A stretch of DNA of 64,000 nucleotides, taken from assembly GCF_934504345.1 (NCBI RefSeq), contig NZ_CAKSVR010000006.1. One strand, given 5' to 3'. Below, piece by piece: positions 11,455 through 59,463 of this stretch. A program made the translations under genes and the position numbers. The stretch's first letter is position 1, and the number at the start of each line of letters is the position of its first letter. The notes under the pieces are model-generated. The model saw nothing but the letters and a program-made list of their open reading frames with translations, was not told the DNA's origin and did no database searches. Origin of the DNA: an uncultured Agathobaculum sp. GTDB lineage: Bacteria > Bacillota > Clostridia > Oscillospirales > Butyricicoccaceae.

Positions 11455-11531
11455 GGCGGTATAGCTTAGTTGGCTAGAGCGTCCGGTTCATACCCGGAAG
11501 GTCATTGGTTCAAGTCCAATTACCGCTACCA
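11455..11531 (+). tRNA. tRNA-Met (anticodon CAT, elongator-like; tRNA-Ile2 not excluded)
   Basis: Hand-folded cloverleaf: acceptor GGCGGTA/TACCGCT, anticodon arm TCCGG-TTCATAC-CCGGA, T loop TTCAAGT, encoded CCA. Confidence 0.9.
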
Positions 11532-11543
11532 CTTTTTTCTCTT

Positions 11544-11618
11544 GGCCCGTTGGTCAAGCGGTCAAGACACCGCCCTTTCACGGCGGTAACGGGGGTTCGA
11601 TTCCCCCACGGGTCACCA
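11544..11618 (+). tRNA. tRNA-Glu (anticodon TTC)
   Basis: Cloverleaf: acceptor GGCCCGT/ACGGGTC, anticodon arm CCGCC-CTTTCAC-GGCGG, T arm GGGGG-TTCGATT-CCCCC, CCA. Confidence 0.92.
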
Positions 11619-11621
11619 GAT

Positions 11622-11697
11622 GGAAGTTTAGCTCAGCTGGGAGAGCATCTGCCTTACAAGCAGAGGGTCACAGGTTCGAGCCCTGTAACTTCCACCA
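11622..11697 (+). tRNA. tRNA-Val (anticodon TAC)
   Basis: Cloverleaf: acceptor GGAAGTT/AACTTCC, anticodon loop CTTACAA, T arm ACAGG-TTCGAGC-CCTGT, CCA. Confidence 0.92.
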
Positions 11698-11704
11698 AGT
11701 TCAA

Positions 11705-11736
11705 GGCACTCACGAAAGTGAGTGCCTTTTCTTTTT
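11705..11736 (+). terminator. Intrinsic terminator of the tRNA operon
   Basis: GGCACTCAC-GAAA-GTGAGTGCC followed by TTTTCTTTTT. Confidence 0.85.
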
Positions 11737-11757
11737 GCCTGAGAGGAAATCAACCGC

Positions 11758-12506
11758 CTTTTCGGCACGCTGCTGTCCGGTGCACGCGAGGTGCGTGAGC
11801 GCTACGCCGTAACCGGGCGGCAGTCTTTTTCTCGGCACCCTTTTACTGGTGCACACGAGTTGCGTAAGCAATACGCCGTTGCCGGGCTGAGGATTTCGCC
11901 GCTTGCGAGCGGCGGGAGAACGGCGCTCCCGCGCGGGGCCTAAGAGGGCAGACAACCTACGGTTTTCCACCCTCTTAGGAAGCTCCCCTTTTCCCTTTTG
12001 GGATACCTCGGAGCGACGGAACGTTCCGTTCCTACTTAGAGGTGGGACCGAAAAAAGGAACGGCAGTACCGTTACCAGCTTGTAGGCCGCAAAGCGCCAT
12101 TCCTTTCACAGCTACGCTCAAGCCGCTAAAGCTCTGCTACACCCAGTTACGCAAAACCCGTGCAATCTGCCGCGATAACGCCGCAACAGCGCAGAAAACG
12201 TGAGCCGATACCGTTCCTTTATGCGAGTTACCTATGAAGTAGAGCCGTAAGGCTCGTTCGCGAGGTTGCCAAGGGAAAGGTAGGAGTTCAAAGAGGGAGG
12301 GAAACCGTAGGTGTTCCTCCCTTTTTGCGCCCGCCGCGCGAGCGGCCCGTTCCCGCCGTCCGCAGACGGCGAAACTCCCCAGCCCGGAAACGGCGTATCG
12401 CTAACGCAACTCGGTTGCACCACAAAACGGCTGCCGAGGAAAGGGCTGCCGCCCGGTTACGGCGTATTGCTTACGCAACTCGTGTGCACCGGAGAACGGG
12501 CTGCCG
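11758..12506 (+). repeat. Repeat family A, copy A1 (full-length, about 750 bp nested imperfect palindrome)
   Basis: Left arm 11758-12075 is the inverted repeat of right arm 12195-12506. The outer arms each carry two tandem ~66-nt units. The core is shared with 23064-23350, 29241-29706 and 41470-42147. Confidence 0.85.
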
Positions 12507-12548
12507 CTGGATTGCGGTTAAATCCCGCCTGCTTCACACAAACTACGT

Positions 12549-12577
12549 TTGCGTTACTCCCGCTTATACGGTATAAT
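12549..12577 (+). promoter_or_regulatory. Candidate promoter TTGCGT-17-TATAAT for the M16 peptidase pair
   Basis: Hexamers 40 nt upstream of the ATG at 12617. Confidence 0.5.
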
Positions 12578-12616
12578 ATTACCTATTGGACAATCTTTCC
12601 GGAATCGAGGGAAATT

Positions 12617-16033: not shown

Positions 16034-16888
16034 ATGAGTGCAGTAAGAATGGACGGCAAGGCGCTGTCCGCCAAGGTGCGCGGCAGCATTCTGGCGGAAA
16101 CCGAGGCGCTGAAAAAGCAGGGCATCACGCCGGGTCTGGCGGTCATCATCGTCGGCAACGACCCCGCAAGTGAAATTTATGTCCGCAACAAGGAGCGCGC
16201 GTGCGAGCAGTGCGGCTTTTACAGCGAGAAGTACGCGCTGCCCGAGGAAACCACGCAGGAGGAGCTGCTCGGTCTGATCGCGCAGCTGAACGAGAGCCCG
16301 GCCATCTCGGGTATCCTGTGCCAGATGCCGGTGCCGAAGCACATCTCCGAGCAGGCCGTTATCGATGCCATTGACCCGAAAAAGGATGTTGATGCGTTCC
16401 ATCCGGTCAATGTCGGCAAGATCATGGTCGGCAATTTCGATTTCGTACCGTGTACGCCGGCGGGCGTGATGGAGCTGCTCGACGAGTACAGCATTGATCC
16501 CAAGGGCAAGGAATGCGTGGTCGTCGGCCGCTCGAACATCGTCGGCAAGCCGATGAGTATGCTGCTGCTGCACCGTCACGGCACGGTCACCATCTGCCAC
16601 AGCCGCACGCAGGATCTCGCGGAGGTCTGCCGCCGCGCGGATATTCTGGTCGCTGCTGTCGGCAAAGCGGGCTTCATCACGCCCGATATGGTCAAGGAGG
16701 GCGCGGTCGTTATCGATGTCGGCATCAACCGCAACGCCGAGGGCAAGGTCTGCGGCGATGTGGCTCCCGAGGTGATGGAGAAGGCCTCCTATATGACGCC
16801 GGTCCCGGGCGGCGCCGGCCCGATGACCATTACCATGCTGATGAAGAATACGCTCAAGGCGGCAAAGCTCCAGCACGGCATTCAGTAA
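16034..16888 (+). CDS. folD: Bifunctional methylenetetrahydrofolate dehydrogenase/cyclohydrolase
   Basis: FolD family: GKALS..., [12 protein letters not shown] and [11 protein letters not shown]. Confidence 0.96.
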
Positions 16889-16895
16889 ACAAAAA

Positions 16896-16932
16896 CCGCC
16901 CGTATCCGGGTTGACAATCCGGATACGGGCGG
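16896..16932. terminator. 14-bp perfect hairpin after folD, flanked by an A5 run (T5 on minus); its loop contains a -35 hexamer
   Basis: CCGCCCGTATCCGG-GTTGACAAT-CCGGATACGGGCGG. The T-run is on the minus side, so it is best placed to stop leftward toxin transcription; it may also stop folD. Confidence 0.6.
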
Positions 16933-16939
16933 GTATACT
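16911..16939 (+). promoter_or_regulatory. Consensus promoter TTGACA-17-TATACT (antitoxin-like RNA 1)
   Basis: Hexamers at 16911-16916 and 16934-16939. Confidence 0.65.
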
Positions 16940-16945
16940 AAAGAT

Positions 16946-17037
16946 AACGAAAGGTGCTGCCGGTAGACGGTCAGCCCCTAAAATTGTGGAAAGAAGTAAT
17001 CGCACATGTAGGAGTGTCGGCGGTTACTTCTTTTTTG
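16946..17037 (+). ncRNA. Candidate type I antitoxin sRNA 1 (about 90 nt; ends approximate)
   Basis: Runs from the consensus promoter to the terminator AAGAAGTAATCGC...GCGGTTACTTCTT+T6. No ORF with an RBS. Its 3' part is antisense to the end of toxin ORF 1. Confidence 0.5.
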
Positions 17038-17095
17038 TTCCTAAAATACGCTCAATGAGTACGAGTATCACTACAAGTATTACGAGATATTCCAT
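17024..17095 (-). CDS. Candidate type I toxin peptide, 23 aa: MEYLVILVVILVLIERILGTKKK
   Basis: ATG at 17095 preceded by GGGGGTGG 6 nt upstream. Hydrophobic helix plus a KKK tail. The TAA stop lies inside the terminator stem. Below the ORF-track size cutoff. Confidence 0.6.
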   Translation of the reverse strand: MEYLVILVVILVLIERILGTKKK

Positions 17096-17165
17096 AGAAC
17101 CACCCCCTTGCAGGGGCAAGACTTAACCGCCTACCGCAGGCGCGGCAGCACCTTTCTTAACGACA

Positions 17166-17194
17166 AGTATAACAGAGTTCGACAGAATACGCAA
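17166..17194 (-). promoter_or_regulatory. Minus-strand promoter TTGCGT-17-TATACT (toxin 1 mRNA)
   Basis: Reverse complement of 17189-17194 and 17166-17171. Confidence 0.55.
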
Positions 17195-17204
17195 TATGGC
17201 ATAC

Positions 17205-17233
17205 TTGACAATCAAGGTGCGGGCGGGTATACT
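17205..17233 (+). promoter_or_regulatory. Consensus promoter TTGACA-17-TATACT (antitoxin-like RNA 2)
   Basis: Hexamers at 17205-17210 and 17228-17233, divergent from the toxin 1 promoter. Confidence 0.65.
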
Positions 17234-17239
17234 AAAGAT

Positions 17240-24817: not shown

Positions 24818-25019
24818 TTAAGGCAACACCGCACAATTAAAGCTGCGGCTCCTTGCGCAGGCTCCGGTCGCGCTGCCGCGGCGCTTTGTGAAAATTTTAC
24901 GTCCTGACTTTGTTGCGATTTCACGGTAATACAGCAAGTATTACCGCAAAATCGCGCCTCGTCAGTACGCAAAATTTATGCACAAATCGCTCTTGTTCAA
25001 TTATGCGGTATTGCCTTAA
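24818..25019 (+). mobile_element. Repeat family B, copy B2 (202 bp, one internal 32-nt module)
   Basis: TTAAGGCAACACCGCACAATTAAAG ... TTCAATTATGCGGTATTGCCTTAA. Confidence 0.8.
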
Positions 25020-25040: not shown

Positions 25041-26288
25041 ATGAAAAAGGACAATACGCCGGTCGATATTGACTTTGCGGAGGCGGCGGTGCCGCATTAT
25101 GCCCGCCGCGGCATCGTGACGATGTTCATGATCATGCTGGGCTTCACGTTCTTCTCGGCCAGTATGTGGGTCGGTCAGGAAATGGCCGATGGACTGGATT
25201 TTGGCGGCTTTATCACTTCCATGATCATCGGCGGCATTATTTTGAGCCTGTACACCGGCCTGCTGGGCTATGTCGGCGCGGAAACCGGCATGAGCCTTGA
25301 CCTGCTGGCACGCAAGGCGTTCGGCCTCAAGGGCTCGTACCTGCCGAGCGCGATGATCTCGTTCACGCAGATCGGCTGGTTCGGTGTCGGCATCGCCATG
25401 TTCGCGATCCCGGTCGCAAATGAACTGCTCGGCGGCAGCACGACGGCGGAGTGGGTGCTCGTTATCATCGCAGGTGCGTGCATGACGGCCTCGGCCTACT
25501 TCGGCATCAAGTCGCTGACGGCCATCAGCTACATTGCGGTGCCGCTGGTCGCTGTTCTGGGCACGGTGGCGATGGTAATGGCGGTCAAGCGCGGCGACGG
25601 CACGATGATCGACCAGTTCGCCAAGTCGAGCGGCACGCTGACGGTCATCGGCGGTGCGGGTCTGGTCATCGGCTCGTTCGTTTCGGGCGGTACGGCGACC
25701 CCGAACTTCTCCCGCTTCGCCCGCAATGGCAAGGTCGGCGCCATCACGACCGTTATCGCGTTCTTCATCGGCAACTCGCTGATGTTCTTCTTCGGCGGTA
25801 TTTCGTCGGTTTATGTCGGCGGCAACGACATTTTTGAGGTCATGATCAACCTCGGTCTGTTCTATCTGGCAATCCTGGTGCTCGGCCTCAATATCTGGAC
25901 CACCAACGACAACGCGCTGTATTCGGCGGGTCTGGGTCTGGCGAACATTTTCGGCCAGAAGAAAAAGACGATGGTGCTCATTTCCGGCATTGTCGGCACG
26001 GTGCTGTCGGTCTGGCTGTACTGGAATTTCACCGGCTGGCTGAATATCCTCAACTGCACGCTGCCGCCGGTCGGCATCATTCTGGTGCTCAGTTTCTTTA
26101 TGCACCGCGAGCAGTACAAGGACGTTGCGGTGACGGAAAATGTCAACTGGTTTGCCGTTCTCGGCGTTGTGGTCGGCGCGGTCGTGGCCAATATCGTACC
26201 GTGGGGTATCGCATCCATCAACGGCATGGTGGTCGCAGCGGTGTGCTATCTGCTTGGCAGCAAGGCCAAGGCAACACCGCACAATTAA
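25041..26288 (+). CDS. codB: Cytosine permease (NCS1 family)
   Basis: 415 aa, 12 TM spans, CodB-like throughout. The last 6 codons and the stop lie inside repeat B3. Confidence 0.9.
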   Translation: MKKDNTPVDIDFAEAAVPHYARRGIVTMFMIMLGFTFFSASMWVGQEMADGLDFGGFITSMIIGGIILSLYTGLLGYVGAETGMSLDLLARKAFGLKGSYLPSAMISFTQIGWFGVGIAMFAIPVANELLGGSTTAEWVLVIIAGACMTASAYFGIKSLTAISYIAVPLVAVLGTVAMVMAVKRGDGTMIDQFAKSSGTLTVIGGAGLVIGSFVSGGTATPNFSRFARNGKVGAITTVIAFFIGNSLMFFFGGISSVYVGGNDIFEVMINLGLFYLAILVLGLNIWTTNDNALYSAGLGLANIFGQKKKTMVLISGIVGTVLSVWLYWNFTGWLNILNCTLPPVGIILVLSFFMHREQYKDVAVTENVNWFAVLGVVVGAVVANIVPWGIASINGMVVAAVCYLLGSKAKATPHN

Positions 26289-26500
26289 AGCTGCGGCTCC
26301 TTGCGCAGGCTCCGGTCGCGCTGCCGCGGCGCTTTGTGGAAATTTTGTGCTCTGACTTTGGCTTCGGTTCCTTGCGCGAGTTCCGTCCGCGCTGCCGAGA
26401 TTTTTTGCAATACGTCAAGTATTGCTGCAAAACCGCGCCTCGTCAGTACGCAAAATTTACTCACAAATCGCTCTTGTTCAATTATGCGGTATTGCCTTAA
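26266..26500 (+). mobile_element. Repeat family B, copy B3 (235 bp, two internal 32-nt modules)
   Basis: CCAAGGCAACACCGC... ...GCGGTATTGCCTTAA. The central hairpin has compensatory changes (GCAATAC/GTATTGC). Confidence 0.8.
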
Positions 26501-29221: not shown

Positions 29222-29240
29222 GATTTGCAAATCCGTTTTA

Positions 29241-29706
29241 GGAAACGGGAACGTGCCGCACGCGTGGCGGGCGCACAAGAGGGTAGACAACCTACGGTTT
29301 TCCACCCTCTTGTGAATCACCCCTTTTCCCTTGATTCCTAAGCCGGCGCACGGAACGGCTACGCCGTTCCTATTTGAGCTCGGGACCGAAAAAAGAGAAC
29401 GGCAGTACCGTTACCGGCTGATAGGTTCGGCTTAACGCCGCCCATTCCTCTCTCGGCTGCGCTCAAGCCGTTAGAGGTCTGCTACACTGCCTTTACGCAA
29501 AACCCGTGAAATCTGCCGCGATAACGCCGCATCAACGCAGGAAACGTGAGCCGATACCCGTTCCTTTATGCGAGTTACCTATGAAGTAGGGTCGTAAGAC
29601 CCGTTCGCGAGGTCGCCGAGGGAAAAGGGGAGCTTCCTAAGAGGGTGGAAAACCGTAGGTTGTCTACCCTCTTAGGCCCCGCGCGGGAGCGCCGTTCCCC
29701 GTTTCC
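29241..29706 (+). repeat. Repeat family A, copy A3 (466 bp, core plus inner arms, no outer 66-nt units)
   Basis: Ends GGAAACGGGAACG / CGTTCCCCGTTTCC are inverted. The inner hairpins CACAAGAGGG..CCCTCTTGTG and CCTAAGAGGG..CCCTCTTAGG mirror each other. Confidence 0.85.
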
Positions 29707-29791
29707 CAAACGGTGTGTCAAACCGTACTCTGCAAACCGAAATCAAACAAACCCACCCGGGTTTTCCCATAAAAAAGAGGAGGAAACGAAA

Positions 29792-41463: not shown

Positions 41464-41469
41464 GCGTTT

Positions 41470-42147
41470 TCGGCAGCAGCCCGTTTCCCGGCAGTCGTTC
41501 TCCGGTGCATACGAGGCGCGTGAGCGCTGCGCCGCAGCCGGGCAGCAGCCCTTTCCTCGGCAGCCGTTCTCTGGTGCATACGAGTCGCGTAAGCGATACG
41601 CCGTTGCCGGGCGGGGGATTTCGCGCTCTGCGGAGCGCGGGAACGGTTTCCAAAAGGATAGACACCCCCTACGGTGGTTTCTATCCTCTTGGGACTCCAT
41701 CTTCCGCCCTTTTGGGATACCTCGGAGCGACGGAACGCAAGCGTTCCTACTTAGAGGTGGGACCGAAAAAAGGAACGGCAGTACCGTTACCAGCTCGTAG
41801 GCCGCAAAGCGCCATTCCTTTCACAGCTGCGCTCAAGCCGTTAACGGTCTGCGACAGTATTTACGCAAAACCCGTGCAATCTGCCGCGATAACGCCGCGA
41901 CAGCGCGGAAAACGTGAGCCGATACCGTTCCTTTATGCGAGTTACTTATGAAGTAGGGCCGCAGGCCCGTTCGCGAGGTTGCTGAGGGAAAGATAGGAGT
42001 TCAAAGAGGAAAGGAAACCGTAGGTGTCCTTTCCTTTTTGCGCTCGCGCCGCGTAGGCGCGCCCGTTCCCGCGCTCCGCAGAGCGCGAAACTCCCCAGCC
42101 CGGAAACGGCGTATTGCTTCGCAACTCGTGTGCACCGGAGAACGGCA
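41470..42147 (+). repeat. Repeat family A, copy A4 (678 bp; two 66-nt units on the left arm, one on the right)
   Basis: Aligns with A1 along its full length. Ends 2 nt from the ppk1 stop codon. Confidence 0.85.
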
Positions 42148-42148
42148 G

Positions 42149-44284
42149 TCAACGTTTCTCGAGCCACCCGCGGAGCTTCGCGAAAAACCCGCCCGCCTGC
42201 GGCGTATGCGCTGCCGCAGCCTGATTTTTCGCACTCTCGATGGCCTGCTGCATCAGCAGATCCTGCGCGCAGATGGGATCCTGAACGGCGGGCTTTTTCG
42301 TATACGAGCCGTCCGGCTGGAGCACCCGCGCCTTGACGGTGTCGTGCTGCATGGCGTAAAGGATGTCGTGCAGACGGGCGCGTACCTCGGCGCTGTCGAT
42401 CGGGCAGGCGACCTCCACGCGGTGCTCGGTGTTGCGCGTCATCAGGTCGGCGGAGGCGATATACATCTTCTCCTCCTCGCCGCGCCCGAACACATAGATG
42501 CGCGAATGCTCGAGGAAACGTCCGACAATGCTCGTCACCGTGATGTTGTCGGTGTGGCCCGGCACACCGGGCAGCAGACAGCAGATGCCGCGCACGATGA
42601 GCTCGATCTTCACGCCCGCGCACGAGGCTTCGCGCAGCTTGGCGATGATGTCGATGTCGGTCAGCGAGTTGAATTTGAGCAGGATATAGCCCGCACTGCC
42701 TTTGGAAATCTGCTCGTCCATCAGGGACAGGATGTTGTTCTTCAGGCTGTGCGGCGCGACGAGCAGACGGTCATACCGGCCATGCAGGTTGCTGAGCGCC
42801 ATATTGTTGAAGAACGCGCCCGCATCCGCGCCGATGCGCTCGTCCGAGGTGATGAGCGACACATCGGTGTACTGCCTGGCGGTTTTTTCGTTGTAGTTGC
42901 CCGTGCCGACCTGCGTGATGTGCCGCACGCCGCCGCGCTCCCGGCGGGTGATGAGGCACAGCTTGGAGTGGACCTTATAATCCTCAAAGCCGTAAATGAT
43001 CTTGCAGCCAGCCTCCTCCATGCGCTCGGACCAGTCGATGTTGTTCTGCTCATCAAAACGGGCGCGCAGCTCGATGAGCGCAGTGACGTCCTTGCCGTTC
43101 TCGGCGGCGGCGCACAGGTATTCCACCAGCTTGGCCTTGCTCGCCAGCCGGTAGATGGTGATGCGGATGGACAGCACAGCCGGGTCGTTGGCCGCCTCGC
43201 GTATCATTTGCAGGAACGGCTCCATGCTCTCATACGGGTAGGAGAGCAGGATGTCGCGCTGGAGCGCGGTCTTGAGCAGGCTCTGTCCGGCGGGCAGCAT
43301 GGCGGGCTGCTGCGGTGTGAACGGCGGGTCGCTGAGGAACGCCCGTTTTTTATCCGGCAGGGACTCGCCTAGCGAGAACGCATAGCCCATTTTGAGCGGC
43401 GCCGTGCGCGACAGGAAGATCTGTGCATCGCTGACCTCAAAGCGGCTGCGGAAGTGCGCCTGAAAGTGGTCGCTGATCGGGCGGGTGAGCTCAACGCGCA
43501 CGACCGCCAGACGGCGGCGCTGGCGCAGCAGGTGCTCCATCTTTTGGCGGATGTCGCCGCCGTCCACGCCGAACGTTTCGTCATCCGGCTGAATATCCGC
43601 GTTACGGGTGACACAGAACACGGTCTTTTCGAGCACATCGTACATCTCGAACACATGGTCGGCGTAAGCGAGCAGAATATCCTCGGTGAGGATATAGCGC
43701 CGCCCGTCCTCCGGCAGAAAGACCAGCGGCGGCAGCGAGGCCGGAATGGGCAGCAGGCCGAGGCGCTCGGTCTTTTTGCGGCTGAGCAGTGCCGCGATAT
43801 GCAGCACCTTGCCCTCCAGATGCGGGAACGGATGGTGCGAGTCCACGATCTGCGGGGACAGCACCGGCGCGATGATGCGCTTGAAATACTGTTTGACGAA
43901 TTTCTGCTCGTCCGGCGTGAGTGTGTTCATCGTCAGGCGGCGCAGACCGAGCGCACCGAGGCGGCTGTCCACATCCGCGAATGCGGCATCGCGGCGGGCA
44001 TAGAGCGGCTCGACCGCCCTGTAAATGCGGTGCAGCTGCTCCTTTGCCGTCAGGCCGGATTTGTTGTCCGTGTGGGTCGGGTCGAGTGCGGCCATGTCGC
44101 ACAGGCTGCCGACACGGATCATGAAAAATTCATCCAGATTGCTGGTGAAGATGGCGAGGAACTTGAAGCGCTCGAGCAGCGGCACGGTTTCGTCCTCGGC
44201 CTCAGCCAGCACGCGGGCGTTGAACTGAAGCCATGAAAGCTCACGGTTTTGTGTATATCCCTGCTCCCAGATGGCCTGTGTCAT
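42149..44284 (-). CDS. ppk1: Polyphosphate kinase 1
   Basis: 711 aa: NRELSWLQFNARVL N-terminus, and two PLD-like HKD regions. Confidence 0.96.
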   Translation of the reverse strand: MTQAIWEQGYTQNRELSWLQFNARVLAEAEDETVPLLERFKFLAIFTSNLDEFFMIRVGSLCDMAALDPTHTDNKSGLTAKEQLHRIYRAVEPLYARRDAAFADVDSRLGALGLRRLTMNTLTPDEQKFVKQYFKRIIAPVLSPQIVDSHHPFPHLEGKVLHIAALLSRKKTERLGLLPIPASLPPLVFLPEDGRRYILTEDILLAYADHVFEMYDVLEKTVFCVTRNADIQPDDETFGVDGGDIRQKMEHLLRQRRRLAVVRVELTRPISDHFQAHFRSRFEVSDAQIFLSRTAPLKMGYAFSLGESLPDKKRAFLSDPPFTPQQPAMLPAGQSLLKTALQRDILLSYPYESMEPFLQMIREAANDPAVLSIRITIYRLASKAKLVEYLCAAAENGKDVTALIELRARFDEQNNIDWSERMEEAGCKIIYGFEDYKVHSKLCLITRRERGGVRHITQVGTGNYNEKTARQYTDVSLITSDERIGADAGAFFNNMALSNLHGRYDRLLVAPHSLKNNILSLMDEQISKGSAGYILLKFNSLTDIDIIAKLREASCAGVKIELIVRGICCLLPGVPGHTDNITVTSIVGRFLEHSRIYVFGRGEEEKMYIASADLMTRNTEHRVEVACPIDSAEVRARLHDILYAMQHDTVKARVLQPDGSYTKKPAVQDPICAQDLLMQQAIESAKNQAAAAHTPQAGGFFAKLRGWLEKR

Positions 44285-46606: not shown

Positions 46607-46842
46607 CTAAGGCAACACCGCACAATTAAAGCGGCGGCTCCTTGTGCAGGCTCCGGTCGCACTGCCGCGGTGCTTTGCGGAAATTTTGTGTCCTGACTTT
46701 GGCTTCGGTTCCTTGCGCGAGTTCCGTCCGCGCTGCCGAAGTTTCACGGTAATACATCAAGTATTACCGCAAAACTGTGCCTCGTCAGTACGCAAAATTT
46801 ACTCGCAAATCACTCTTGTTCAATTATGCGGTATTGCCCTAA
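46607..46842 (+). mobile_element. Repeat family B, copy B4 (236 bp, two internal modules)
   Basis: CTAAGGCAACACCGC... ...GCGGTATTGCCCTAA. Lies between merR and the MATE gene. The merR stop codon is inside its last 4 nt. Confidence 0.8.
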
Positions 46843-48626: not shown

Positions 48627-48729
48627 AAGAGTGGAGAGCGCTTTTACTCTTCACTCTCCACTCCCCACTCTTAGAAAAAACCGGCACATACAGAGGAAAA
48701 CTTCTCGGTAGTGCCGGTTTTGCTGTGTG

Positions 48730-49417: not shown

Positions 49418-50371
49418 ATGCGGAAACTGCTGCTGACCGGCGGTTTGCTGGTGCTTGTGCTGTATGCGCTGCCGATGGTGTACCCATCGGAACCGACATC
49501 GGACACGCCCGCAGAGAGCACTGCGGCGGCTGTTCCGGCAGGTGACAGGACGATCACTGTGCTGGTGGATGGCAAGGCCGAGGAGCTGCCGCTCGAAACC
49601 TATGTGGAGGGCGTGACGGCGGCGGAGATCGCGGATGATTTTCCGGTCGAGGCGATACGGGCACAGGCGGTCGCGGCACGGACGTATGCGGTGTATAAGC
49701 AGTCGCGCGGCCGTCCGGCGGAGCACCCGGAGGCCGATGTCTGCGACGATTACACGCACTGTGCGGCGTATGAACCGGCGGCGGTCAAGACGTTCAGCAC
49801 CGGCTATGCGCGGGTGCGGCAGGCGGTGAAAGACACGGCGGGCCAGATACTCGTGTACGACGGTGCGCCGGTCGCGGCGGTGTTCCACTGCGTGAGCGGC
49901 CCAAAGACCGAATCCGCCGCCGATGTGTGGGGAGAGGATATTCCGTACCTGCAAAGCGTGGTCAGCCCGGGCGGCACGCAGTACCCGGAATACGAGAGCG
50001 CGGTGACGTTTACGGCGGACGAGTTCCGCGAGAAGGCCGCGCAGGCATTGCCGTCAGCCGATGTGAGCGGCGCGCCGGACCGCTGGTTTGCCTCGTCGGT
50101 GCGCTCGGCGGCGGGCGGCGTGAAAACCGTCAAGCTCGGCGGCGTGACGGTCGATGGAACGGCCGTGCGGGCGCTGTTCGGGCTGAGATCGACCAACTTC
50201 ACCATCACCACGACCGAGGACAGCATCACGTTCCACACCATCGGCTACGGACACGGCGTTGGGCTGTCGCAGTACGGCGCGAAGTATATGGCAGAGCAGG
50301 GAAGCGACTATACAGAGATTTTAGCGCACTACTATCCGGGCACAGAGTTGAGAGTTGAGAGTGGAGAGTGA
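49418..50371 (+). CDS. spoIID: Stage II sporulation protein D (SpoIID/LytB lytic transglycosylase)
   Basis: AQAVAARTYAV, FHCVSGPKTES and GHGVGLSQYGA motifs. Start at MRKLLL (49418) with a GGAAGGAGGGG RBS. Confidence 0.9.
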   Translation: MRKLLLTGGLLVLVLYALPMVYPSEPTSDTPAESTAAAVPAGDRTITVLVDGKAEELPLETYVEGVTAAEIADDFPVEAIRAQAVAARTYAVYKQSRGRPAEHPEADVCDDYTHCAAYEPAAVKTFSTGYARVRQAVKDTAGQILVYDGAPVAAVFHCVSGPKTESAADVWGEDIPYLQSVVSPGGTQYPEYESAVTFTADEFREKAAQALPSADVSGAPDRWFASSVRSAAGGVKTVKLGGVTVDGTAVRALFGLRSTNFTITTTEDSITFHTIGYGHGVGLSQYGAKYMAEQGSDYTEILAHYYPGTELRVESGE

Positions 50372-50413
50372 AGAGCGGAGAGTGAAGAGAATGGATAGCG
50401 GAAAATACATGAG

Positions 50414-52961: not shown

Positions 52962-53090
52962 ACGGCGGCGGTGCTTTGCGGAAATTTTGTGCTCTGGCAT
53001 CGTTGCGCTTCCTTGCAATACACAAAGTATTGCTGCGGAACCGCGCCTCGCCAGAACGCAAACTTTACTCGCAAATCACTCTTGCCGCAT
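52962..53090 (+). repeat. Repeat family B, degenerate internal fragment B5 (no terminal repeats)
   Basis: GGTGCTTTGCGGAAATTTTGTGCTCTG...TGCAATACACAAAGTATTGCTGCGG...CGCAAACTTTACTCGCAAATCACTCTTG aligns to the B interior. Confidence 0.65.
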
Positions 53091-53213
53091 CACTCGTCAG
53101 CACCTCTGATGGTGCCGCGGATTATACGGAAACACCTGACGATATTGCAGCAATATCGTCGTTTGCCGCCGCTGCATTTCCCTCAAACGCAGCGGCGGGT
53201 CGGGTCGATGGAC

Positions 53214-57270: not shown

Positions 57271-59463
57271 TTATTCGCTGTCGGATACAGTTACAGCCTT
57301 TTCCGTGGTCTTTGCGACCGCTTTTTCCGTGGCTTTCGTCACAGCCTTGGTTCCGGTGCGGGCTACCGCCTTTTCACCGGTCTTGGCTACGGCCTTGGAG
57401 GTCGTTTTTGCAACGGCCTTCTCCGTGGTCTTTGCAACGGCCTTGGTGCCGGTCTTTGCGACGGCTTTGGTGCCGGTCTTGGTCACGGCCTTGGTCGAGC
57501 GGGTGCGCTTTGCGGGCTTGTCGGCCGCCTCGGCCTTTGCCGCTTCGATCTCGGCCTTGGTGCGGCGCTTGGCTCTCGCCTTGCCCTTGAGGAACAGCAC
57601 GCCGAAGCGCGGGATCTTGAGCGCGATGGACTGCTCCTGCCCGTGCATGGGCTTGCTGTCGGTCTTGACCTTGCCGTTGGCTATGCCGCTGCCGCCGAAC
57701 TCGGTCTTGTCCGAGGTGAATATTTCTTCGTAGGTGCCGGTGATCGGTACGCCGATGCGGTATTCCTGCTGCTCCTCCGGGGAGAAGTTGACAACGACCA
57801 CGATGTCCGAGCCGTCCTTGGCGACACGGCGGAACGCGATGATGTTGTTGCGGTTATCCTCGTGGCTGATCCACTCGAAGCCGCGCCAGTCGGTATCCTG
57901 CTCCCACAGCTGCGGAGTCGCAAGATAGAAATGGTTGAGTGCCTTGACATAGCTCTGCATCTGCTTGTGCGCCGGATAGTCCAGCAGCATCCAGTCCAGA
58001 CCGCGCTGGTACGCCCATTCGGAGAACTGGGCGAACTCGCCGCCCATGAACAGCATCTTCTTGCCCGGATGTGCGGCCATGTAGCCGTACAGTGCGCGCA
58101 GACCGCCGAACTGGTTCTCATACGGAGGCGGCATCTTGCCGATGAGCGAGCACTTGCCGTGTACGACCTCATCGTGCGAGAGCGGCAGGATGTAATTCTC
58201 GGAAAAGGCATACATGAACGAGAACGTGATCTTGTCATGCATATCCTTGCGGAAGAACGGGTCGGCCGAGCAGTAGCACAGCATATCGTTCATCCAGCCC
58301 ATGTTCCACTTGAAGTTGAAGCCCAGACCGCCGTCATAGCCAGGTTTCGTGACCATCGGCCACGCGGTGGACTCCTCCGCGATCATCAGGACGTCCGGAT
58401 GATCGGTCAGTATGTACTCGTTGAGCAGGCGCAGGAAGTCGACCGCTTCGAGATTCTCGCGTCCGCCGTGGATGTTCGGCCGCCATTCATTCTGGCGGTT
58501 GTAGTCCAGATACAGCATGGACGCGACCGCGTCTACGCGCAGGCCGTCCATGTGGAACTTCTCGATCCAGAACATTGCGGACGAGAACAGCAGGTTTCGC
58601 GTCGAGGTCTTGCCATAGTCGAACACGCGCGTGCCCCATTCCTTGTGCTCCATCTTGAGCGGATCGGCGTACTCATACAGATGCGAGCCGTCGAACTCGA
58701 CCAGACCGCAGCCGTCCTTCGGGAAGTGAGCCGGAACCCAGTCCATGATGACGCCGAGGCCGGCCTGATGCGCCTTGTCGATCAGGTACATGAGATCCTT
58801 CGGCGTGCCGTAGCGGCTGGTCGCGGCGAAATAGCCGATGACCTGATAGCCCCACGAGCCGTCGAACGGATACTCGGTCAGCGGCATGAACTCGATATGC
58901 GTGTAGCCCATTTCCTTGACATAGGGAACGAGCTCGTCCGCGAGCTGGCGGTAGGAATAAAAATTACCGTCCTCGTGCATCTTCCACGAGCCGAGATGGC
59001 ACTCGTAGATGTTGACCGGACTGGAATACGGCAAGTGGTTTTTGCGCCACTGGAGCCAGCTGTCGTCGCCCCATTCGTAGCCGCTGATATCATACGCCTT
59101 GGTGGCGTTGCCCGGGCGGGTCTCGAAGTGGAAGCCATACGGGTCGGACTTGTCGAATACATCGCCCGATTTGGCCCATACGCTGTACTTGTACGCGGTA
59201 TATTCCGCGATATTCGGAATAAATTTCTCCCAGATGCCCTGCTCGTCGCGGGTCATGTAATCGGCTTCCCGGTCCCAGCCGTTGAACTCACCCATGACCG
59301 ACACGTTCGCCGCCTCCGGCGCGTACACGCGGAACAGATATCCCTGCTCGCCGTCCTGCACGAAGGGGTGTGCGCCCATGTAGTCATAAGCTCGGCAATC
59401 CCTGCCCGAGTAGAAAAGCTCGCTGCGCTTTTCTACGGCCGGGGATGCGGATTTCTTCCTCAT
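57271..59463 (-). CDS. glgB: 1,4-alpha-glucan branching enzyme with repetitive K/A/T-rich C-terminal tail
   Basis: GH13 branching enzyme core (DWVPAHF, GLRVDAVASMLY, EESTAWP). The last ~80 aa are 8-aa repeats of KAVAKTGT type. Confidence 0.95.
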   Translation of the reverse strand: MRKKSASPAVEKRSELFYSGRDCRAYDYMGAHPFVQDGEQGYLFRVYAPEAANVSVMGEFNGWDREADYMTRDEQGIWEKFIPNIAEYTAYKYSVWAKSGDVFDKSDPYGFHFETRPGNATKAYDISGYEWGDDSWLQWRKNHLPYSSPVNIYECHLGSWKMHEDGNFYSYRQLADELVPYVKEMGYTHIEFMPLTEYPFDGSWGYQVIGYFAATSRYGTPKDLMYLIDKAHQAGLGVIMDWVPAHFPKDGCGLVEFDGSHLYEYADPLKMEHKEWGTRVFDYGKTSTRNLLFSSAMFWIEKFHMDGLRVDAVASMLYLDYNRQNEWRPNIHGGRENLEAVDFLRLLNEYILTDHPDVLMIAEESTAWPMVTKPGYDGGLGFNFKWNMGWMNDMLCYCSADPFFRKDMHDKITFSFMYAFSENYILPLSHDEVVHGKCSLIGKMPPPYENQFGGLRALYGYMAAHPGKKMLFMGGEFAQFSEWAYQRGLDWMLLDYPAHKQMQSYVKALNHFYLATPQLWEQDTDWRGFEWISHEDNRNNIIAFRRVAKDGSDIVVVVNFSPEEQQEYRIGVPITGTYEEIFTSDKTEFGGSGIANGKVKTDSKPMHGQEQSIALKIPRFGVLFLKGKARAKRRTKAEIEAAKAEAADKPAKRTRSTKAVTKTGTKAVAKTGTKAVAKTTEKAVAKTTSKAVAKTGEKAVARTGTKAVTKATEKAVAKTTEKAVTVSDSE

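Follow-up and report, generated by a model that had tools for sequence, protein, structure and literature searches.

Family A, a strand-polar mosaic of covarying hairpins in intergenic spacers of a gut Agathobaculum

Element A1 and the architecture of its family

We analyzed a 64,000-nt stretch of DNA from an uncultured Agathobaculum sp. (contig NZ_CAKSVR010000006.1 of assembly GCF_934504345.1; hereafter the window), in which an earlier note had described, at positions 12000-12300, compensatory base changes in hairpins arranged like two inverted GTAG-tagged repeats. This region is the inner part of a 782-nt non-coding element, A1, which is one of four copies (A1 to A4) of a repeat that we term family A. 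All four copies are intergenic and lie on the + strand, and a 25-nt core pattern occurs four times in the window versus not once in 100 shuffles. Upstream of A1, a tRNA-Met/Glu/Val cluster (11455-11697) ends in a terminator consisting of a hairpin and a T-run. Family A copies occupy spacers bounded by a terminator on one side and by the following promoter on the other. Downstream genes have their promoters immediately past the right ends of the elements, and no sigma-70-type promoter was found inside the elements or just upstream of the repeat unit. Open reading frames (ORFs) are not conserved across copies, which have no coding capacity. Neighboring genes, both in the window and at other loci such as L007 (L-numbers denote gut-metagenome contigs or loci compared with the window), are functionally unrelated housekeeping genes. 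A riboswitch or leader RNA was considered and rejected, as the downstream genes are unrelated and have their own promoters between element and gene. With Rfam 15, only three tRNAs reached the gathering score in the window, and nothing meaningful appeared in 11700-12600 up to E = 10.

The right half of the element, about 180-190 nt in length (12147-12327 in A1), forms the conserved repeat unit and comprises a 5' domain, a long hairpin H2, a purine tract and a hairpin P (Table 1). It is usually followed by the hairpins X' and H1' and by one or two inverted outer units, U'. In doublets, an inverted counterpart (U, U, H1, X, P, a pyrimidine tract and H2L) stands ahead of a 147-nt centre. Relative to the right arm, the left arm is an inverted and diverged copy; outer layers vary in number among copies. 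In A1, the outer inverted repeat extends over 134 nt (82%; 11763-11896 / 12373-12506) and the inner one over 62 nt (71%; 11933-11994 / 12273-12334), with GGAAATCAACCGC / GCGGTTAAATCCC as the outermost arms.

Table 1 Positions of the A1 modules and of the remaining family A copies in the window
Feature	Position	Strand	Remarks
A1, whole element	11745-12526	+	tRNA-Val terminator (11703-11735) upstream, M16 peptidase gene promoter downstream
Left outer layer, two tandem U units of ~70 nt each	11779-11887	+	
Left H1 hairpin, CGCCGCT-TGCG-AGCGGCG	11897-11914	+	Read directly in the sequence
Left X palindrome, CCCGCGCGGG	11928-11937	+	Read directly in the sequence
Left P hairpin, inverted copy	11939-11979	-	Sense (minus) strand AAGAGGGTGGAAAACCGTAGGTTGTCTGCCCTCTT
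Left arm H2L, diverged inverted counterpart of H2	12009-12063	-	Ends in AAAGGAACGG (12054-12063)
Unique centre, left part	12064-12146	+	In full-length copies only; GTAGG at 12082-12086, hairpin C1 at 12085-12098
5' domain of the conserved right half	12147-12213	+	TTACGCAAAACCCGTGCAATCTGCC, hairpin GCG-ATAA-CGC, variable tip, GAAAACGTGAGCCGATACCG
H2, 64-nt imperfect hairpin, 22 pairs	12214-12277	+	RNAalifold consensus of 11 and of 15 copies
Purine-rich linker between H2 and P, AGGTAGGAGTT	12278-12288	+	
Right P hairpin, 39 nt	12289-12327	+	Base AAGAGG/CCTYTT, variable middle, invariant tip AAACC-GTA-GGT
Right X' hairpin, GCCGC-GCGA-GCGGC	12333-12346	+	
Right H1' hairpin, GCCGTC-CGCA-GACGGC	12355-12370	+	
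Right outer layer, two inverted U units (U')	12382-12500	-	
A2, singlet	23089-23352	+	Right half with P at 23131-23334, then X'; without left arm
A3, doublet, single outer layer	29234-29713	+	Between ABC ATPase and dCMP deaminase genes
A4, doublet, two U left and one U' right	41467-42148	+	Between convergent CarD-like and ppk genes

H2 of A1 reads TTCCTTT..GCG..CCT.TGAA-GTA-[GAGCC-GTAA-GGCTC]-G-TTCG..AGG..TGC..AAGGGAA, with GTAG at 12239-12242 and the tip hairpin at 12242-12255; in the basic unit of the family, the tip is GTA-GGGCC-GTAA-GGCCC. Its 3' strand (AAGGGAA, 12271-12277) continues into the linker to form the purine tract AAGGGAAAGGTAGGAGTTC (12271-12289), and a T-run directly follows the right P. 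Each U unit contains a 4-bp hairpin with a GTGA or GTAA loop (GTGC-GTGA-GCGC and TTGC-GTAA-GCAA in A1). On the left, H1 and X together (11897-11937) mirror 12333-12370, while the left P forms 17 of 18 pairs on the minus strand and shares 97.6% identity with the right P region of A3. The tip of H2L in A1 is GGAACG-TTC-CGTTCC (12018-12032), followed by TAC (CTAC at 12032-12035).

Preserved local hairpins and the strand polarity of the units

Covariation was assessed on alignments of 11 or 15 distinct right-half copies using RNAalifold consensus folding and column shuffles (n = 500). The two alignments gave identical structures. Over the right half (11 copies), 97.8% of cells are paired and eight pairs changed on both sides; the covariation score was reached by none of the 500 shuffles, and sliding the partners lowered pairing to 43-60%. 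In helices 4-7 of H2, pairing reaches 97-100%. The P alignment of 15 distinct unit-sense copies showed 93.7% pairing and changes on both sides in 8 of 18 pairs, with a covariation score of 0.437 versus 0.163 in shuffles, none of which (0/500) reached it. The stems of X', H1', U, C1 and the H2L tip likewise differ between copies while staying complementary. X' varies as GCCGC/GCGGC, GCGCC/GGCGC and CCCGC/GCGGG; H1' as GCCGTC/GACGGC, GCGCTC/GAGCGC and GCCGCC/GGCGGC around a constant CGCA loop; and U as TTGC/GCAA, TCGC/GCGA and GCGC/GCGC. C1 keeps a GG..CC base below an upper stem of CGC/GCG or TCGGC/GCCGA, depending on the copy, and the H2L tip pairs with TTC in A1, C-AA-G in A4, L045, L046 and L047, and GC-TAC-GC in A3. 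Each module combines a conserved loop and flanks with a covarying stem. Two further candidate stems were rejected: GCAATCT/AGGTTGC, suggested by a single-sequence fold, has a varying 3' strand without compensation, and a hairpin at the variable tip of the 5' domain pairs as CCGCG/CGCGG in A4-type copies but carries two uncompensated G-to-A changes in A1 and A3. A2 has a 20-nt additional hairpin at this variable tip.

These data bear out the proposal of the earlier note that stems covary rather than mutate independently, as compensated changes are seen in the right half, in the H2 tip and in P. The right-arm tips that had motivated it read as quoted: GAGCC-GTAA-GGCTC in A1 at 12242-12255, GGGCC-GCA-GGCCC in A4, GGGTC-GTAA-GACCC in A3 and GGGCC-GTCA-GGCCC in A2. 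Among 15 copies, two pairs of this hairpin changed on both sides (G-C to A-T in six copies, C-G to T-A in one), and L046 preserves one half-compensated intermediate. All copies with the A-T variant belong to a single subfamily (A1, L045, L047 and strain variants), so that about two independent events are recorded in the tip hairpin. The mirrored left hairpins followed by CTAC held in part. For A1, ACGGAACGTTCCGT at 12016-12029 and CTAC at 12032-12035 were found, as was GGAACGC-AA-GCGTTCC in A4, but the A3 hairpin is GGAACGGC-TAC-GCCGTTCC, with a TAC rather than a TA loop, and is followed by TATT instead of CTAC. The A1 hairpin homologous to those of the other copies is the tip at 12018-12032, and its 3' arm overlaps CTAC. 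Similarly, the 10-bp long-range pair 12054-12063 / 12211-12220 is present but perfect in A1 and A4 only, and it is mismatched without compensation in A3, L045, L046 and L047, in contrast to its proposed conservation. As for the step from covariation to selection, the covariation is strong, but in a DNA quasi-palindrome it is not by itself proof of selection because template switching also restores complementarity (PMC7202029).

A GTAG tetranucleotide beside a palindrome had been taken as a sign of repetitive extragenic palindromic (REP) sequences. GTAG does abut hairpins at three places of the core. All 15 distinct copies have GAAGTAG ahead of the H2 tip hairpin, and its last G is also the first stem base in all of them except the A1 subfamily. 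C1 is preceded by GTAGG or ATAGG, and so is the H2L tip when read on the minus strand, with ATAG in A3. The loops of both P hairpins contain GTAG as well, and the density of GTAGG in the elements is about nine times that of the remaining window.

Pairing is also strand specific. When examined strand by strand, many pairs proved to be G·U or G·T and thus valid on one strand only, and one-sided changes in H2 almost all preserve pairing, through G·U, on the + strand alone. The consensus fold energy is -48.2 kcal/mol on the + strand versus -41.3 kcal/mol on the minus strand, and the right half of A1 has fold z-scores of -3.35 and -0.83, respectively. In all five doublets, the right arm folds better on the + strand, by 11-13 kcal/mol, and the left arm on the minus strand, by 5-12 kcal/mol. 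Each unit thus carries its own polarity and folds best on its own sense strand; the flip of the favored strand between arms argues against one RNA running through the whole element.

The two arms of a doublet are not kept complementary to each other. In four of five doublets, their P stems belong to different subtypes, and P pairing counted for A1, A3 and A4 reaches 17/18 locally versus 26-33/36 from arm to arm. Folded as a whole, the core can form one long hairpin (z = -6.25), and 12000-12300 alone, as single-stranded DNA, is no stabler than shuffled sequences (z = +0.53). Evolution has preserved the local hairpins and not the arm-to-arm pairing. The core is consequently not the REPIN, that is, the long hairpin of two inverted REPs, that the earlier note had seen in it.

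Copies, loci and relatives

Within the window, the copies differ in their extent. Upstream of the A2 right half lies a hairpin, GGGCGACAC-GGTT-GTGCCGCCC (23089-23110), and directly downstream of A2 is a consensus promoter, TTGACA-18-TATAAT (23370-23399). A3 has a terminal inverted repeat of its own, CGTTTTAGGAAACGGGAACG / CGTTCCCCGTTTCCCAAACG, and the right end of A4 adjoins the ppk stop codon (42149-42151). The outermost ends are not shared (GGAAATCAACCGC in A1, CGTTTTAGGAAACGG in A3 and a position inside a U unit in A4), and no common terminal repeat exists. Target-site duplications are not visible at A3 or A4; A1 has GCCTG near both ends, not flush with them. GC skew is positive over 0-52 kb of the window, and the + strand, on which the right halves fold, therefore corresponds in sequence to the lagging-strand template. 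Gene orientation switches exactly at A4 (~41.4-42.2 kb), with nearly all genes on the + strand before it (0-41 kb) and nearly all on the minus strand after it (42-64 kb); GC skew is still positive past this point, until ~52 kb.

The window has 58% G+C and encodes a pyruvate kinase 87-89% identical to proteins labelled Agathobaculum (Butyricicoccaceae), and contigs identical to it occur in human-gut metagenomes, for example, in Hadza sample ERZ4568022. Searching with a 21-base core pattern matched 11 gut-metagenome contigs. Among species-representative genomes, the same pattern returned no true copy and one chance match in a Bacteroidia coding region. Two patterns applied to viral contigs gave no match and one chance coding match, respectively, and plasmid and phage collections contained no family A match. 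Additional copies were sought by comparing the translated minus-strand frame of the right arm with a protein collection, in which spurious ORFs had been called on other copies; this produced 11 further matches, whose contigs yielded three new full-length loci, L045, L046 and L047. In total, the family A right half was found at ten distinct loci. At least six of them are additional to the four in the window, all in human-gut metagenomes, and the flanks of the new loci are all absent from the window. Singlets without a left arm comprise A2, L002, the L003 group and L004, while A1, A3, A4 and L045-L047 are inverted doublets; the L007 and L011 copies end at different 5' points. L039 and L040 represent a related family with another core that shares the purine tract, the P hairpin and the outer layers.

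Family A was not found in 21-kb syntenic stretches of Agathobaculum species with 87-90% pyruvate kinase identity. Closer relatives provide empty sites: in L029 the spacers of the A3 and A4 loci are short and empty, as is that of the A4 locus in L028. These measure 73-85 nt versus 562 nt (A3 locus) and 715 nt (A4 locus) in the window, with 73-75 nt for the two A4-locus spacers. The A3 locus exists in four states, namely empty (L029), occupied by the doublet (window), by an inverted singlet (L002/L010) with the same left junction as A3, or by a diverged relative (L028) with the same P hairpins and outer layers and a barely alignable core. At the right end of A4 (42100-42160), the PPK protein of the window ends in LEKR* at the element border. 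In element-free relatives it is eight residues longer (..IRKWFSGS*), and a 10-nt sequence (ACCGGAGAAC) in their ppk tail also occurs at the end of the U' unit, which suggests that ppk was shortened by insertion or recombination at this microhomology.

Many assemblies break inside A1, where L016 and L018-L022 start. In L017 (1180-1330), a different upstream gene is joined within U units, and in L018 (1-110), an A4-left-like arm is joined to the A1 right arm; these joins reflect either repeat-induced misassembly or real recombination between copies. At two unrelated loci (L003:2855-2910 and L004:425-480), the P hairpin has a 55-nt insertion in its 5' arm that contains a hairpin of its own, CCGCGC-ACG-GCGCGG, as well as CCTACGG, which is complementary to the invariant P-loop CCGTAGG.

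The spacers of the window contain additional repeats. Tandem heptamers AGAGTGA/AGAGTGG occur at 23001-23030, 50351-50400, 48640-48670 (minus strand), 21947-21960 and L004:190-225, lying directly 5' of the short-form copies A2 (23001-23030) and L004; the corresponding position in L002 (reverse strand), immediately upstream of its copy, is taken by AATTAGT heptamers. A second intergenic family of 100-240 nt, D1/D2, is present at 24820-25019, 26268-26500, 46609-46842 and 53008-53108. Two of its copies flank a cytosine/purine permease gene (25041-26288), and its motif AAGAGTGATTTGCGAGTAAATTTTGCG is also found at 23519, downstream of A2. The 1-kb spacer between FolD and RpiA (16846-17820) consists of tandem repeats with 130-nt units at 16846, 17140 and 17469 and 177-nt units at 17019 and 17644. 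Lastly, repeats with a 12/24-nt period at 57307-57495, inside the glycogen branching enzyme gene (57271-59463, minus strand), probably encode a repetitive C-terminal peptide tail.

Interpretation and comparison with known repeat classes

We favor, with a probability of roughly 0.55, the reading that family A is a lineage-specific mosaic DNA repeat resembling REPs and bacterial interspersed mosaic elements (BIMEs) and acting as single-stranded hairpins. It is suggested by the polarity of each unit and its reversal between arms, the lack of promoters, the variable ends and the lack of visible target duplications. The active form would be single-stranded DNA, for example, on the lagging-strand template, which corresponds to the + sequence for all four window copies. 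The hairpins may be recognized by an enzyme encoded elsewhere, for which a hairpin-specific HUH/Y1 transposase of the REP-associated tyrosine transposase (RAYT) or IS200 type would be the best candidate, because GTA-G recurs at hairpin feet and in P loops. Copies would have been spread and reshuffled by this enzyme and by recombination between modules. In read-through transcripts, P and H2 may additionally act as terminator or RNA-stabilizing hairpins, as proposed for REPs.

A number of points weigh against this reading. No Y1_Tnp/RAYT or other transposase domain was detected in the 64-kb window or the fetched family A loci. The sample comprises only about 15 distinct copies, and several of these are close relatives; just four copies underlie the shared + orientation, which also matches the direction of transcription, and the G·T bias toward one strand could have been inherited from a master copy rather than selected in place. 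The published REP descriptor places GTAG or GTGG 0-2 nt 5' of a hairpin with 7-20 fully paired bases (PMC6006769), which we applied with a loop of 2-5 and a G+C-rich stem base, and the H2 tip has just 5 bp (4 bp in L004). Comparison of near-identical strains revealed no recent and precise event of insertion or excision. The relatives with empty sites have 92-96% pyruvate kinase identity, and their spacers have diverged too far for the junctions to be placed, so a short target duplication there could have escaped notice.

As a second reading, which we consider rather unlikely, the right half would be a new structured RNA of ~190 nt that spreads as mobile DNA, be it a small RNA gene or a cis-acting 3'-untranslated-region, terminator or stabilizer module, and its covariation would reflect selection on the RNA fold. 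Conserved loops and junctions beside covarying stems, many G·U pairs valid on the + strand alone, the better folding of that strand, GNRA-type loops (GTAA at the H2 tip, GCGA in X') and the co-orientation of most copies with flanking genes all accord with an RNA. So does the T-run after P in several subtypes, which resembles an intrinsic terminator, but other P subtypes have none. On the other side, the unit has no promoter within it or just upstream; A1 in particular sits behind a strong tRNA terminator and ahead of the next promoter. One read-through transcript would not suffice either, as the left arms fold better on the minus strand in five of five doublets, and the unit in L002/L010 is inverted at the A3 locus. 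Functionally unrelated neighbor genes and the lack of any Rfam family even at E = 10 also disfavor this explanation. Alternatively, the compensated stems may be unselected products of template switching or gene conversion between arms, with spread by recombination only and without an enzyme or function. Quasi-palindromes are known hotspots of template-switch mutation that copies one arm from the other (PMC7202029), the H2L tips resemble palindromic insertions (TTC, C-AA-G, GC-TAC-GC), and mosaic or chimeric copies exist, with arms joined differently among strains (L011, L017, L018). Such a process yields perfect Watson-Crick arms, however, whereas most mismatches seen here are G·T when read on the unit-sense strand, whichever way the arm is oriented. 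It also leaves unexplained why loops and flanks are invariant beside varying stems and how units arrived in at least ten unrelated spacers, and we regard it as distinctly doubtful.

Very improbable, in our assessment, is a classical miniature inverted-repeat transposable element (MITE), a deletion derivative of a DDE-type insertion sequence (IS) moved as double-stranded DNA through its terminal inverted repeats. The long inverted repeats at the ends (134 nt, 82% in A1), the small, noncoding and intergenic nature of the elements, their restriction to one lineage and the empty sites in relatives fit a MITE. The shared termini that define this class are lacking, though: the ends of A1 (GGAAATCAACCGC), A3 (CGTTTTAGGAAACGG) and A4 (inside a U unit) differ, and singlets such as A2, L003 and L004 are one-armed. 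Target-site duplications are not visible at A1, A3 or A4, the same arms surround at least three cores (family A, L028 and L039/L040), and recognition of double-stranded termini would give hairpin polarity no role. Quite unlikely, finally, is a more specific form of the single-stranded-hairpin reading, in which the modules are substrates of a hairpin-recognizing enzyme not yet linked to repeats in Clostridia. This could be a RAYT-like Y1 protein with new specificity or a member of another class, which would read the loops AAACC-GTA-GGT and CGCA, tolerate any stem and build palindromes nested like onion layers, up to ~800 bp long, around cores that can be exchanged. If true, it would constitute a REPIN-type system of new architecture in gut Firmicutes.

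Nearly all known repeats with GTAG-tagged hairpins, and the domesticated transposases associated with them, come from Proteobacteria and a small number of other phyla. A strand-polar mosaic of many hairpins in common butyrate-producing gut Clostridia would extend this biology to a phylum in which tagged hairpin repeats are hardly documented (PMC3733652, PMC6006769, PMC5581495). Family A also offers a tractable case for what maintains hairpins in spacers, be it selection on single-stranded DNA, selection on RNA or templated mutation. On the practical side, the elements break short-read assemblies of the host species, and their placement between terminators and promoters or at gene ends, as at ppk, may affect expression and genome rearrangement.

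By analogy, family A would be in kind a non-autonomous counterpart of the REP/BIME and also the ERIC- and BOX-type intergenic repeats, a placement to which we give slightly better than even odds. Like REPs, BIMEs and REPINs of Escherichia, Pseudomonas and Stenotrophomonas (SMAG), it consists of intergenic hairpins with GTAG at the foot, the tetranucleotide lying within the 0-2 nt of the REP descriptor. Singlets, inverted doublets and mosaic clusters whose modules alternate in orientation all occur, for the most part between genes that are co-directional or convergent, and the repeats are noncoding with no visible target duplication. Nonetheless, family A is not a REP by the published descriptor, nor a REPIN in the sense of a maintained long hairpin. 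Its GTAG-adjacent stems have 3-8 bp (in addition to the H2 tip, 3-5 bp plus a bulge in C1 and 6-8 bp in the H2L tip, with 2/4 G/C in the GGAA base), and P has GTAG in the loop. REPs measure 20-40 nt and reach high copy numbers, as opposed to a multi-hairpin unit of ~190 nt, doublets of 480-780 nt and the ten loci found here. In REPINs, the mutual complementarity of the inverted REPs is maintained, whereas arm-to-arm pairing and the 10-bp pair of family A go uncompensated.

Regarding a cognate enzyme, a RAYT gene is typically present in a single copy, flanked by its repeats in the same genome. Family A differs from such systems in its clostridial host and in that no RAYT gene was seen in the window or the fetched loci. 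A survey of tagged REPs across eight phyla does not mention Clostridia or Firmicutes (PMC3733652); group 1 RAYT genes and IS200-type Y1 genes have been reported in Clostridia (PMC5581495, PMC6006769), where Y1 genes of the IS200/IS605 class are common (PMC6006769). Our literature searches returned nothing specific on such repeats in Agathobaculum or on RAYT/REPIN systems in Firmicutes.

Two other classes are recognized as folded single strands. Palindrome-associated transposable elements (PATEs) are non-autonomous IS200/IS605 derivatives whose strand-specific hairpins are recognized as single-stranded DNA on the lagging-strand template. Family A hairpins are likewise strand specific, biased in orientation and without visible target duplication. 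PATEs, however, have one left-end and one right-end hairpin on the same strand with constant cleavage sites, unlike the many hairpin types, inverted arms and variable ends of family A. Integron attC sites, also recognized as folded single strands, resemble family A in conserving structure over stem sequence and in having one favored strand. They lie in cassette arrays beside an integrase and contain RYYYAAC/GTTRRRY core sites, and neither arrays, adjacent integrases nor such sites accompany family A.

The enterobacterial repetitive intergenic consensus (ERIC; also termed intergenic repeat unit, IRU) is an imperfect palindrome of ~127 nt, and BOX of Streptococcus pneumoniae is modular (boxA-boxB-boxC); both are intergenic, affect RNA stability if co-transcribed and have variants with internal insertions, and no dedicated transposase is known for either. 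Family A shares with them its intergenic location and its larger, modular palindromes, and the 55-nt insertion in P of L003 and L004 compares with their insertion variants. It has no sequence similarity to ERIC or BOX, and it is set apart by nested inverted layers, a unique centre and units that each have a strand polarity of their own.

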